64,000 nucleotides of DNA, taken from NCBI GenBank assembly GCA_951406725.2, contig OX597816.1, forward strand, positions 177,754,001 through 177,818,000. Reading direction: 5' to 3'. Under the pieces are notes generated by a model. That model was not told the origin of the DNA. It did no database searches and saw only the letters and a program-made list of their open reading frames with translations. Positions 14,991 to 51,870 of the stretch are shown here, piece after piece. Each line of letters begins with the position of its first letter. Within the stretch, counting starts at the first letter, position 1. This stretch comes from Octopus vulgaris. Lineage: Eukaryota. A program made the translations under genes and the position numbers.

Positions 14991-15236
14991 AGACGAAGAC
15001 GGGTGTCTAAACAACAAACATATGTATTCGTTTAACGCTCGTAAAGTGAGAAAGTCTTTTGCGTTTCGAGTCTACGCTCTTCGACAGAAAGGAACACAAA
15101 AATAAATAATGAGAGAATATAAAAAGGTTTAGTGGCTAGTGATCTAACATGGCGAATGCCGGAGAGAGGGGTCAGACAGGAGAACTAGGAAGAAGGGGAG
15201 ATAATAAAGTAGTGGTGATCCCCAAACGAAGAAATA
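14991..15236 (-). mobile_element. Penelope pLTR fragment with variant HHR (CUGUCGA)
   Basis: Homologous to 29636-29790 and to 51085-51365 upstream of the PLE RT ORF. Confidence 0.75.
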
Positions 15237-15744
15237 TTTATATATATATATATATACATATATATATATATATATATATATATATATATATATATATATA
15301 TATATATATATATATATATATATATATATATATATATATATATATATATATATATGTTTATATATATATATATATAAATATTTCTTCGTATTGATTTGCC
15401 TAATAGTGGTTTTATCTCTAATTTAATATAATATAATATAATATATTTTACTATAAAATTGGATTTAATCCTAAATCTGATTTTTCCCTGTAAGTTTGGA
15501 TTTATTCCCTAATATTTTATTATATATATATATATATATATTTGTATGTATATATATATATATATATATATATATATATATACATACATACAAATATATA
15601 TATATATATATGAAGAAATATTTATACATATATATATAAAGAAATATATATATATATATATATATATATATATATATATATATATATATATATATATATA
15701 TATATATATATATATATATATATATATATATATATATATATAAT

Positions 15745-16260
15745 AAATATTAGGGAATGAATCCAAAATTACAGGGAAAAATCAGATTTAGGGTTAAATC
15801 CAATGTTATAGTAAAATATTATATAATATAATTCGAGACAAAACCACTATTTTAAAACCAAACAAGGAAAGACTTAATCAATACATAAAATTTTAATATA
15901 AATTAAATAAACCGCCACTACAAATGTTTCATGTCTGCTACCGACAATCTTCAGGTGGATTTTCGATCTAAAAATATCAATATTTTAAAATATAATTTAA
16001 AATAATTTAAAATAATAAAATAATAAAATTATCAATCAAAGAATATAAAAAAATAAAAATATAATCTATATATAATCTATATATAATCTATATATAATCA
16101 ATATATAATCTAAAATAATCTAAAATAAACACTATAAACAATTGAATATAAAAACCTATTATAAAAGTTCTCATATTTAAAAATGTACAAAAATGTTATG
16201 TATTGATTAAGTCTTTCCTTGTTTGGTTTTAAAATAGTGGTTTTGTCTCGAATTATATTA
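15745..16260 (-). mobile_element. Short PLE-type element with inverted segment and HHR
   Basis: 16190-16260 is the reverse complement of about 15825-15895; tail 15745-15825; second partial copy on + at 15385-15518. Confidence 0.75.
15915..15958 (-). ncRNA. Minimal type I hammerhead ribozyme
   Basis: CCAC-CTGAAGA-T-TGTC-GGTAGCA-GACA-T-GAAA-CATTT-GTA-GTGG: stem I CCAC/GTGG, stem II TGTC/GACA, GUA site. Confidence 0.85.
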
Positions 16261-16340
16261 TATATATATATATATATATATATATATATATATATATATA
16301 TATATATATATATATATATATATATATATATATATATATA

Positions 16341-47690: not shown

Positions 47691-48129
47691 TTAGACGTGT
47701 GGGTGTGTATATATATATATATATATATATATATATATATATATATATATATATATATATATATATATATATATATATATATATATGTGTGTGTGTGTGT
47801 GTGTGTGTGTGTGCGCACACACACACACACATATATATATATATAAAATTAATGTAAACAGCATGTTGCAGTGTTTTACGAAGTTGAATTATAATTGTCA
47901 CTAAATGCGACTAAGTTGTTAAAAAACACCTATATTGCTAGAAATAAGAGCTAAATCGCTCTAATGCTCTACTTAACGCACATGAATGAAAACATATCAA
48001 CTAACCAGGATCATAATTGCCCGAAAAATACCAACCGAGAATTCTTTAGACTGACGCGTCAGTTTCGACAATTTCTGTTGCCATTTCTGGGGCACTGCCT
48101 TGAATTTTTAGTCGAATAAAATCGACCCC

Positions 48130-51100
48130 GGTTCGGGAGTGGGACCAGTGAAACTAGAGAATATTTGGGCCTCAACATAGCCAACGAACAGGTTCGCATA
48201 GTTGGGGCCCATTCGCGTTCCCATGGCCACTCCCGAGACTTGTTGGTAGAACTCTCCCGCGAACGAGAAGCAGTTAAGAGAAAGGACAAGTTCGGCCAGA
48301 CGAATGAGTGTGGAGGTGTCGGGTTCGGGCTTGGGGCGGAGGTCGAGAAAGTGTTGAAGTGCACGCAGTCCTTCGTGGTGAGGGATGACGGTATAGAGGC
48401 TCTGGATGTCCATTGTAAAGAGGAGTTTGGAGGAACCAAGAGGAAAGGAGAAAGAGTTGAAAAGCCGGAGAGCATGGTTGGTGTCGTGGATGTGAGAGGG
48501 AAGAGACGCCACTAGGGGGGCAAGGGCACGGTCAAGGTATTTTGAGATGAGCTCCGTGGGGCAGTTACAGGCGGAGACGATGGTGCGGCCAGGGTTGTTG
48601 GGTTTGTGGATTTGGGGGAGGAAGTAAATGGTGGGGGTGCGTGAGGTTCGGACAATGAGGCTGGATGCGGTGTGGGGGAGACGGGAGGACGAGATGAGGT
48701 CGTGGACAGTAGAGGAGACCGTCTGTTGGTAGCTAAGCGTGGGGTAAGAGGACAGAGGGGAGTAGAAGGAGGTGTCATTGAGTTGGTGGAGCGCCTCGGC
48801 CCTGTAGAGGTCCGCGCGCCACACCACCACAGCTCCACCCTTGTCGGCCGATTTAATGACAATGTCAGCGCGCCGTCGGAGGGAACGAAGAACCGAGAGC
48901 TCGACCGGGGAGATGTTGAGGCGGCGGTGGCGCCTGGAGAAGTTGAACCGCTCCAACGCGCGCTGACAGGCACCCGCGAAAAGATCCACTGCTTGGAACT
49001 GGCCGGGGGCAGGCGTCCACTGGGATGGTCGGCGGCCCAGGTCAGTGAAGCAGTCCTCCTCGTTGGATGCGGGTGGTATGTCGCGGAAAAACGCACCCAA
49101 CCGGACGCTGCGCACAAAGCTGTGGACATCAGCACGCGTCTGGAATTCCTTACAGGATGGAGTGAGGGGTGTGAAACGCAGACCCCTATTGAGGATGGGG
49201 CGCTCCGCCGCAGAGAGGGGAGAATCTGGGGGAATGGTATCAACAGACTGAAGTGGAGAAGGGGTGGATGGAATAGAAGTAGGAGGAGTGGTAGGGCTGG
49301 TGGAGGTCTGAGGGTGGGCGTGGGAGGTGTGTGTGGGTTGTTAGGAGGGACAGTGGGTTAGGTGTGGGTGGGTGGAGCCTATCAGGGGGGAGAAGGGTAG
49401 CGGAGGAGTTGGGGTAGTGGAGTCGGGTGTGATGGAATGGAGGAGTGATTGGAGTTTATGAAGTTTGGTATTGGCAAGAAATTGATGAAAGAGGTGATTT
49501 AAATGGATAATGAAGCGCAACGTGTTTTGAGCATGGAAAGGCGGCAAAGAGGAGAAAAAGATGGAAAAAGCAAGAGGGAGAAGGCAGTTAATGGTATGTA
49601 GTTTAGAGAGATTGGAGCGAAAGGTGGCACGGATAAGGCGGTAAGATGTGGTGCGGAGTATGGATAGAATGGATGAAGCAGAGTGGAGAGCAGTGTGGAA
49701 ATGGAGGCGGAAACCTTTAGGGATGAGGCGGCTTAGAAAAGAGACGTGGCTAGAGAAGCGGTTTTTTTTAAAAAGGAGCAGAGAGAGGTTAATGGATGGT
49801 TGAAAGCAGTGGAGAGGGAGTAGACGTAAGTGTTGTTTCAGGCGATGGTGGAGAGTGAGGAGGTAAGATTTATAATCCGGCATGGTGGAATAGCGAAAAA
49901 AAGAGAGAAGCACAAGCGTTCGAAGAAGAAAAAAAATAAATAAAAATTAAATTAAAAAATAAACATAAAAATAAAAGAATAAGAAAATTTAAAATTAAAA
50001 TAAAATAAAATAAAAATAAAAAATAAATAAAAGTAAAATAAAAATTAGATAAATAAAAGAAGAAAAGGGCGGTAGGAGAAGAAAATAAAGGCGATGAAGA
50101 TGGGACAAATAGAAAAAGGAAAGAAAAGAAAGGAAGCAGAGAGAGAGAGAGAGAGAGAGGCACAATAAGCGGGTGCAAACAGAAAACAGAGTATGGACAT
50201 CCAGAGAAGGAAGAAACGACAGAAAGGAGGACAAAAGAATACAGGAAAATGTGGAAAGTATGAAATGAATGTAAAACAATATAATATACTAGCAGTATCG
50301 CCCGGCGTTGCTCAGATTTGTAAGGGAAATAACTATATAAGCATTTTTAGAGAGTTACTTCCCTTATAGATGCCAATTCGGGCTTTCTTAGCCATTTCTG
50401 TTTTGGTGTCTTCAAGCCATGAAGTCATTGTTCTAAAAGAACGCTGGTCTCCTTGACAACGCATTACGACGTTGATTTCCTTACACTCCCTTCCCCACAG
50501 CTTCACGAGGGAGGGAAGAAGGGGGAGAAGCAAACAGGTGCAGGTGTGACCATGGACGCCAACTCCGCCGCCATCGACACACGAAAAATTATGCATTAAA
50601 ATGGAATAAAAAATGATGTTAAATTATTTTTAAAATCGTAGACTCATCGTAGACGCGCGCTAATACCCAGACGGGCTCGATATGAATCACGACTATAAGA
50701 TACCCGAATTTGGTTAAACTGCACCGCAAAATGTGGGAGTAGTTAGGAATCTAAATCGAAGGGAACAGACACTCACACAACTACAGTTTTATATATATAG
50801 ATGAGAAAAATATGAAAAAATAAAGTGAAAACGAAAGGGACAGATTTTACGAAGAGTTCAGAAGTTTAAAAGTTTGTAGACGTCGTGGTGTATTTCAAGG
50901 ATGTCACATCAATAACAAAGTCAGTTTGATCCGTGTAGGAGAGGTGCAGCCAGAGGGTAGGTGTCCTTAGAGGTAAAAGAAAATCCAATGGAGAGGTAGT
51001 GTCCGTCGAGGAAAGGTAAGAGTTGGTAGTGGTAGAATATAGGATCAAAGTGAGACCACGTGAGCGCGTGATATATAACGGGAACGTTTACGAAAATAAA

Positions 51101-51870
51101 CAAAAGACGAAGGTAGGTGGAATACAAACAAACAAATGTATTAGTATGGCGCTCAGGAATAGAAATAGAAAGAATTTTACGCTTCGACAGAAAGATGCAA
51201 GATGCACAGAAAAAAAAAACAAGGAGAGAAACAAGGAGAGAAAAAAATGCGTGTAAGAGCTAACGATCTATCATGGCGTCCTTACTTCGGACAGTGGTCA
51301 GACGCGAGAGGGACTGTAGGGGAGATAACAGGGTCAAGTGACTTCCAATACGAAGGTGCCCCCAACACAAAGGTGCGTGTGTGTATAAGAGAGTATGTAT
51401 GTGCGCGTGAAAGAGGGCTGGTGGTCTGGACGTGTGTGTGTATGTATGTGTGGGTGTGGAGATGTGGGGATGGGTGTGTGGGTGGTGTGTTGTGATGCGA
51501 TATGTGTATGTATGTGTATGTGTAAAGATGTGGGGATGGGTGTGTGGGCGGTGTGTTGTGATGTGATGTGTAATGTTGTATGGTGTAGTGTAGTGTGGTG
51601 TGGTGTAGTGTGGTGTGGTGTAGTGTGGTGTGATATTGTGGTGGAGAGGTGTGGGATAGGCGTGAGGTGTGTAGGGGAGGGGTGGGGTAGAGTGGGGGAA
51701 GGGGTGGGAAGGATAGGGAAGGTGGAGTAGGGGAGGGTGGGTTTATGGGGGGAGGGGAAGGTGGGTATATGAGGAGAGAGAGGAGGAAAGAAGGAGAGAA
51801 GAGAGGGAAGGGGAGGAGGAAGAGGCGATAGAGGAGAGGAGGAGGCGGGAGAGGAGGAGGGAGAGGGAGA
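48130..51870 (-). mobile_element. Penelope-like retroelement (upstream pLTR, N-terminus and RT; truncated before the catalytic DD motif)
   Basis: KSADKGGAVVVW, PGRTIVSACNCPTE, FTMDIQSLYTVIPH and YQQVSGVAMGTRMGPNYANLF are PLE RT motifs; pLTR homology at 51085-51365; Helitron nested inside. Confidence 0.88.
50289..50801 (-). mobile_element. Non-autonomous Helitron nested in the PLE
   Basis: Reverse complement of 31431-31939 with TC/CTAG termini at an AT site. Confidence 0.92.

Follow-up and report, generated by a model that had tools for sequence, protein, structure and literature searches.

Penelope-like elements (PLEs) carry minimal hammerhead ribozymes (HHRs) within their pseudo-long terminal repeats (pLTRs). 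According to PMC4209133, these ribozymes have a type I topology with a short stem I, an extra nucleotide between A9 and G10.1, a G10.1-C11.1 pair and a palindromic sequence at 15.2-16.2, and they occur mostly as single truncated copies. Position 6 of the core is an A in all 56 rows of Fig. S3 of that paper, as the descriptor used there required, and the core variant that it describes is U3-A8. The stretch analysed here, a 64,000-nucleotide window of the Octopus vulgaris genome (contig OX597816.1, positions 177,754,001 to 177,818,000 of the forward strand), has three homologous loci with a U at this position (A6U; CUGUNGA rather than CUGANGA). On balance, we favour the view that these are the remains of one family of Neptune-type Penelope-like retrotransposons, that the A6U change was inherited from a source element, and that a resulting weakening or loss of cleavage was tolerated.

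The window motifs share with the PLE minimal hammerheads all of the structural features listed above, and also their occurrence as single truncated copies. In the Neptune motif from Acropora digitifera (PMC4209133 Fig. S3), the 3′ strand of the 4-bp stem II and the ACGU are the same as in the window, but here U replaces the A found at position 6 throughout that figure. Like the Neptune PLEs that have an endonuclease (EN+ PLEs) documented in PMC8557442, the window element has a DKG motif, microsatellite targets, 5′ truncation, a pLTR ahead of the open reading frame (ORF) and a variable 3′ tail, and its relatives carry a CX2-5CXXC linker and, at the C-terminus, a GIY-YIG endonuclease. It differs in that the window copy is dead, with nothing after reverse transcriptase (RT) motif B′, and in the long spacer between ribozyme and ATG. 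Position 6 of the CUGA turn is also naturally altered in the hammerhead of phage Bcep176 (PMC3088659, PMC7151607). There, however, the change is A6C, in a phage ribozyme that has been assayed and prefers Mn2+, whereas the A6U in the window is in a minimal eukaryotic motif known from its sequence. Non-LTR retrozymes (PMC7229834; bioRxiv 10.64898/2026.07.22.740005) are likewise short non-coding hammerhead repeats related to PLE pLTRs, but they form tandem arrays with canonical type I ribozymes, whereas the window copies are dispersed and single, with a minimal variant core. A natural A6U hammerhead was not reported in the literature searched, a scope outside which the main survey (Lunse et al. 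2017) falls, and its novelty is provisional.

Three homologous loci with an A6U core

The original prediction placed CTGTCGA at 15081-15087 and 51184-51190, and CTGTAGA at 29754-29760, all on the minus strand, and all three are present there. The 7-mer CTGTNGA is by itself common, with 21 occurrences in the 64-kb window, so the surrounding sequence must carry the weight. The three loci, and the ribozyme within the second, are as follows.

14991..15231, minus strand: E15, a 5′-truncated pLTR copy between (TA)n tracts (alignment, nhmmer)
29637..29790, minus strand: E29, a shorter 5′-truncated pLTR copy between (TA)n tracts (alignment, nhmmer)
29730..29763, minus strand: E29 ribozyme, the sole whole A6U minimal hammerhead (descriptor, folding)
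51064..51370, minus strand: p51, a pLTR copy that has lost 15 nt (stem II and GAAA) and carries small internal duplications; same 3′ end as E29

Alignment of the three loci, which had been proposed as a check, established significant homology. Identical columns numbered 105 of 128 (82%) for E15 and E29, 123 of 139 (88%) for E29 and p51, and 168 of 212 (79%) for E15 and p51, with z-scores, relative to 300 block shuffles, of 20.6, 15.7 and 12.1, respectively. No additional copies of the A6U family were found in the window by nhmmer. A scan of a genome-contig collection with the A6U motif as a DNA pattern returned no matches, p51 had no match in a plasmid collection, and a general repeat search of the window was dominated by microsatellites.

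A minimal-hammerhead descriptor that permitted one core change had four matches in the window, the A6U motif at 29760 and three motifs with a C at position 4 (U4C; core CCGACGA) at 21186, 23438 and 27517, and no matches in 30 shuffled windows. A relaxed descriptor added one match, a canonical motif at 29353, and again none in shuffled sequence (0/20). The E29 motif has a 3-bp stem I, the core CUGUAGA, an extra A, a 4-bp stem II, GAAA and the palindromic ACGU, with cleavage predicted between 29733 and 29732. Closure of stem II by G10.1-C11.1 and the extra nucleotide after A9 are common to E29 and the three U4C copies. We rejected on inspection a register that places the core three bases later, as stem II then fails at its second pair. 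In the folding model, the stem II pairs have probabilities of 0.97-0.98 in E29 and of 0-0.21 in E15, which has, in addition to U6, a stem II mismatch (GAGC/ACTC, not GAGC/GCTC) and a C at 16.1. CCTGAGCG, present in 5 of the 6 copies, is absent from E15. The E15 and E29 motifs differ at 4 of ~37 positions, and two of these differences are disruptive, an indication that single copies are decaying. All three loci depart from the consensus core (CUGANGA ... GAAA, A15.1-U16.1, H17), E29 by A6U, E15 by A6U and C16.1, and p51 by the deletion of GAAA. The A6U motif is thus a variant or relic of the PLE minimal hammerhead rather than a consensus member, and its designation as a PLE pLTR hammerhead is supported by the scaffold, by the homology and by an outside family with the same architecture (see below).

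The p51 locus has lost stem II and GAAA, as had been noted, but the TACG microhomology offered as the cause does not suffice, as a CGTA/TACG repeat would remove 13 nt and the deletion is 15 nt. In the alignment, a single 15-nt deletion is best placed just past an imperfect TCGAA repeat. Positions 6 and 7 of p51 sit inside this repeat, so an A6 parent with one further substitution would yield the identical sequence, and p51 is therefore a weak witness for A6U.

N7 varies among the A6U loci (C, A) but U6 does not. By a hand estimate based on the 18% divergence of E15 and E29, the same change would occur twice by chance with a probability of ~0.1% at position 6 and ~3% at any core site, and U6 thus probably descends from a single source. 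If old copies had instead decayed independently, or if the likeness to a hammerhead were fortuitous, this would be compatible with copies that are 12-21% apart, with the ambiguity of p51, with the lack of a hammerhead among the Rfam matches listed for the window (150 of 302) and among the 4 matches for 29250-29800, and with minimum-free-energy folding z-scores that are unremarkable (-0.9 to 0.2). Such an origin is nevertheless highly improbable, given the double-change estimate, the descriptor results with shuffled sequences and an architecture that matches published PLE ribozymes.

The neighbouring reverse transcriptase

A PLE RT reading frame lies on the same strand, downstream of p51. The segments from the 5′ extension of p51 to the end of this frame are listed in the order in which they would be transcribed.

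51371..51875, minus strand: C-rich low-complexity stretch that follows a degenerate (TA)n, probably more 3′ untranslated region (UTR) carried in the pLTR
50800..51063, minus strand: unique C-rich segment, putative first part of the 5′-UTR (single-copy in the window, skew 0.47)
50280..50799, minus strand: unrelated 520-bp repeat with TC...CTAG ends, not PLE, a later insertion between A and T (97% identical to 31429-31948)
49884..50279, minus strand: pyrimidine-rich segment with simple-repeat expansions, putative second part of the 5′-UTR
48132..49883, minus strand: dead PLE frame of the Neptune type, with the N-terminal domain and the RT as far as five residues short of YIDD (protein homology)

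The frame had been predicted as an ORF at 48108-49913 but it is not intact. It starts at 49883, aligned with residue 1 of a full-length relative, has an in-frame stop codon at 49341-49343, and its homology ends at 48132. This corresponds to residue 533 of the relative P0002, which has YIDD at 538, and the sequence beyond is unrelated. A tblastn search with 120 relatives found no clear PLE thumb, linker or GIY-YIG endonuclease anywhere in the window, with only scattered single matches outside the frame. Of 107 conserved columns, 9 are changed; among the 19 other rows, 18 have 0-4 such changes, and the last, a more distant one, has 14 of 121. With an in-frame stop, truncation before YIDD and no endonuclease, this RT copy is dead and cannot mobilise anything. 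There is an imperfect inverted repeat at 48018-48094, just past the point at which the frame is cut off.

The RT is of the PLE type, with a DKG motif, and groups with proteins that have an RT, a CX2-5CXXC linker and, at the C-terminus, a GIY-YIG domain. The linker is present in 72 of the 78 full-length relatives among the 120 matches, and Pfam identified a C-terminal GIY-YIG in all four relatives tested, in two above the curated cut-off. The best identity to the window RT among the 240 protein matches listed is 64%. The tree is a quick version built from 84 of these 240 matches plus L001, an outside locus described below, and a ribozyme is known for just two of its tips. The RT is assigned to the Neptune clade, or to Nematis, which shares the linker, by domain order following PMC8557442, the tree containing no named Neptune reference.

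The distance from the p51 core to the ATG is 1307 nt, or 787 nt without the 520-bp repeat. From its TC...CTAG ends we take this repeat to be Helitron-like; it is young, and further copies are located at 31429-31948 (97% identical to 50280-50799) and at 36284-36695 (internally different). Depending on which counts are used, a same-strand copy would fall within 0.8-1.4 kb upstream of the frame with a chance of 0.02-0.07. From 51875 to 48132, C exceeds G in every segment (skew 0.22-0.91) except the inserted repeat (0.00), and the values for the flanks are 0.01 and -0.10; a skew of 0.45 is reached by 5% of 434 windows of equal size. Position and strand skew together argue that p51 is likely to be the 5′ pLTR of the neighbouring RT, in keeping with the association originally predicted. 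The 3′ end of the RT element is missing, and p51, at the 5′ side, is the only candidate for its pLTR.

Alternatively, p51 might be an independent A6U pLTR fragment, inserted into a TA tract upstream of a different Neptune element with a ribozyme that may be U4C or canonical. TA runs flank 51064-51875 on both sides, and p51 ends at the normal 3′ end of the family, followed by a short TA run (~4 units), whereas the TA run at its 5′ side is long. A tblastn search with the 120 relatives detected no remnant of coding sequence within the pLTR, and the 787-nt spacer exceeds our estimate of ~260 nt, based on Table S1 of PMC4209133, for the Neptune element of Acropora. These features of p51 count against its assignment to the RT. 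The nearest relatives with a known ribozyme, moreover, carry U4C or canonical cores (PMC4209133 Fig. S3), and PLEs tend to insert beside other PLEs (PMC6765202). Against separate insertion stand the low positional probability, the few units of the 3′ TA run and a strand skew that continues in the two unique segments flanking the inserted repeat, and we consider it possible but not likely.

Ends of the short copies

E15 and E29 are bounded by (TA)n on both sides, their 5′ ends differ, and p51 starts at a third point. The 3′ ends are 96, 123 and 126 nt after C3 in the three copies, with E15 ~30 nt short of the other two. PLEs are known to target microsatellites, to be 5′ truncated and to have a variable 30-40 bp ‘tail’ (PMC8557442); in PMC11167929, this tail is attributed to a pair of internal RT start sites. 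As the ends of E15 and E29 match this description of truncation, microsatellite targeting and tail, a separate non-autonomous partner is not needed, and both look like ordinary 5′-truncated ends in (TA)n. The proposal that this RT lineage mobilises the short elements is weakened, since the RT copy is dead and the differing 5′ ends fit truncated copies of the element itself.

The short A6U copies would, on another reading, be a non-autonomous family, retrozyme-like or similar to short interspersed nuclear elements (SINEs), moved in trans by the RT lineage. Non-autonomous families derived from pLTRs have been described (bioRxiv 10.64898/2026.07.22.740005; PMC8557442), and C23 and C27, of the related U4C family, begin at the same 5′ point, as members of a fixed-length family would. 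Fixed termini are, however, not seen for E15, E29 and p51. All copies in the window are single and >2 kb apart, with no tandem repeats of the unit, and every base of E15 and E29 is explicable as truncated pLTR. Movement in trans thus seems unlikely, more so than separate insertion of p51.

The CCGACGA family and Neptune elements outside the window

The U4C copies in the window, and the related ribozymes identified outside it, are at the following positions.

21137..21316, plus strand: C21, U4C copy, core at 21186 (descriptor, alignment)
23353..23566, plus strand: C23, U4C copy, core at 23438 (descriptor, nhmmer)
27431..27642, plus strand: C27, U4C copy, core at 27517; 5′ start as in C23 (descriptor, nhmmer)
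L001 2615, L002 2062, L004 1991, L005 4119, L006 853: ribozymes of the outside U4C-rich Neptune-type family, which otherwise match the published Acropora Neptune motif

The three window copies are 93-96% identical to one another, a family younger than the A6U copies. C23 and C27 (two of the three) have a common 5′ start after (TA)n and perhaps constitute a fixed unit of ~214 nt, and so a true non-autonomous family. The family is akin to the A6U loci over the ribozyme and ~60 nt downstream (nhmmer E 2.5e-6 to 3.8e-5 in the window; z 3.1-6.8). The predicted sharing of downstream sequence and of a GAGC/GCTC stem II is borne out to this extent but does not include E15, with its GAGC/ACTC stem and lack of CCTGAGCG. 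In the window, there is no link of the U4C family to the RT copy. The CCGACGA core is neither new nor local. U4C (CYGANGA) has been documented in a viroid (PMC3088659), it is in the descriptor of PMC13481778, and the same change is present both in the window family and in 6 of 8 copies of the outside Neptune family.

This outside family was identified by a scan of the genome-contig collection with a 20-row RT alignment, which gave six loci (L001-L006) from 54 candidate stretches. All are in one record titled as a bacterial metagenome-assembled genome (MAG), although the content is that of an animal-type PLE, and presumably they are host DNA in the MAG assembly. The loci are one family, mostly 90-98% identical to one another; over long matches, their identity to the window RT is 52-59%, and they are placed with the window RT in a 24-row group in the quick tree, with a Shimodaira-Hasegawa-like approximate likelihood ratio test (SH-aLRT) value of 97. 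Their ribozyme has the same architecture and is ~100 nt after the stop codon, with variable 3′ ends. One of the eight copies has a canonical core, one is decayed and the others are the U4C copies already noted. The outside family supports the identification of both window families as Neptune pLTR ribozymes.

CUGUCGA and CCGACGA are each one step from CUGACGA, as expected if sister lineages had diverged at different core positions, as was suggested. U4C with the same stem II 3′ strand, however, is found in the outside family and in descriptors (PMC13481778), so the shared stem II marks a wide Neptune lineage rather than a local pair of sisters.

Other hammerheads and retroelement fragments are also present. 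In L005, two 870-bp fragments from a different PLE form an inverted pair (235-1100 and 1378-2247), and their ribozymes have the canonical core CUGAAGA. In the window, a type I hammerhead of a third family, with the canonical core CUGAUGA, a 6-bp stem II and a short stem III, is located at 29347-29400 (plus strand, core 29353), on the strand opposite E29 and ~280 nt from its 3′ end. Two CUGANGA stretches, at 53024 and 52945 (52900-53030, minus strand), each followed by hairpins and GAAAC, fall outside the descriptors used; they are on the 3′ side of a different, broken RT at 54579-55427 (Pfam RVT_1 E 1e-18). There are also fragments of other retroelement frames at 3300-4115 and 25897-26274 (both plus strand), by eye similar to long interspersed nuclear elements and to LTR elements.

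Function and history of the A6U ribozyme

When the A6U, U4C and outside families are compared, 3 of the 4 stem I pairs are altered on both strands, and 91.5% of cells are paired, as compared to 13-47% in slid controls. With only three lineages, and a structure drawn from the same sequences, this covariation is suggestive. In the folding model, both variant types show pairing between the core strand and the ACGU palindrome, strong for U4C (probability 0.7-0.99) and, in another register, weak for A6U (0.3-0.4), which hints at a lock that could hold the ribozyme in an off state. Self-dimers were predicted to have the active fold in none of six motifs, including the one with the canonical core, and this calculation is without discriminating power.

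The A6U core might, in principle, be a working variant maintained by selection that cleaves as a dimer, with the PLE protein or with a shifted metal preference. Both stems, GAAA and the ACGU palindrome are intact in E29 and, as noted, U6 is constant where N7 is not. The natural A6C hammerhead, although of low activity and slow in Mg2+, does cleave, best in Mn2+ (PMC3088659, PMC7151607), and the ribozyme of an Anolis PLE cleaves only with protein (PMC11167929). An intact scaffold is, however, also expected if the change was recent in the source, and there are only two clean copies, which are single and decaying. Deep mutational scanning showed that altering the CUGA turn, except by a swap of C3-G8, results in low activity that is not rescued by second mutations (PMC9901934). 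Retention of function is thus doubtful. The slow A6C ribozyme, the low activity of CUGA-turn changes and the Anolis PLE, for which HHR mutations had no effect on insertion in vitro (PMC11167929), argue for an inherited, weakened or dead ribozyme that was tolerated.

The history that we favour, which overlaps in part with the alternatives, would then have begun with a Neptune-type PLE that had a minimal type I A6U hammerhead in its pLTR. The RT and GIY-YIG protein of this element would have introduced nicks at (TA)n targets and, by target-primed reverse transcription, copied the RNA starting close to the end of the pLTR. Early termination would have resulted in the short 5′-truncated ends, E15 and E29, and one partial-tandem insertion in a 5′ pLTR plus body, from ~51875 to 48132. 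This copy would later have acquired the Helitron-like insertion, the 15-nt ribozyme deletion, the stop codon and the 3′ truncation. A6U may have lowered or removed cleavage, and the lineage could have tolerated this, PLE insertion not strictly needing ribozyme cleavage.

In addition to the features of p51 noted above, three observations weigh against this history. The U6 evidence consists of two clean copies, E15 and E29, plus the weak witness p51. All eight outside copies retain A6 and so lend no outside support to A6U. No full-length or young copy of the A6U family was recovered among the 240 protein matches listed, all at 64% identity or less. Overall, we still lean towards an inherited, tolerated A6U in one Neptune-type family.

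If A6U is no more than an inherited loss of function, it is a small addition to repeat annotation. A bolder reading, which we regard as rather improbable, is that a whole, once highly successful Neptune lineage fixed A6U with the scaffold under selection, the change, of a kind that is normally crippling, being rescued by the PLE protein or by dimer formation, or the motif having a non-catalytic role in protein binding or in setting the start of reverse transcription. If so, A6U lineages would be invisible to CUGANGA and CYGANGA searches, and standard descriptors would miss whole families of PLEs. Cleavage by PLE hammerheads is poor, and for one element that has been assayed insertion proceeds without it. 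The spread of a lineage with A6U would offer a natural experiment on whether PLEs can dispense with cleavage or have it rescued by protein.

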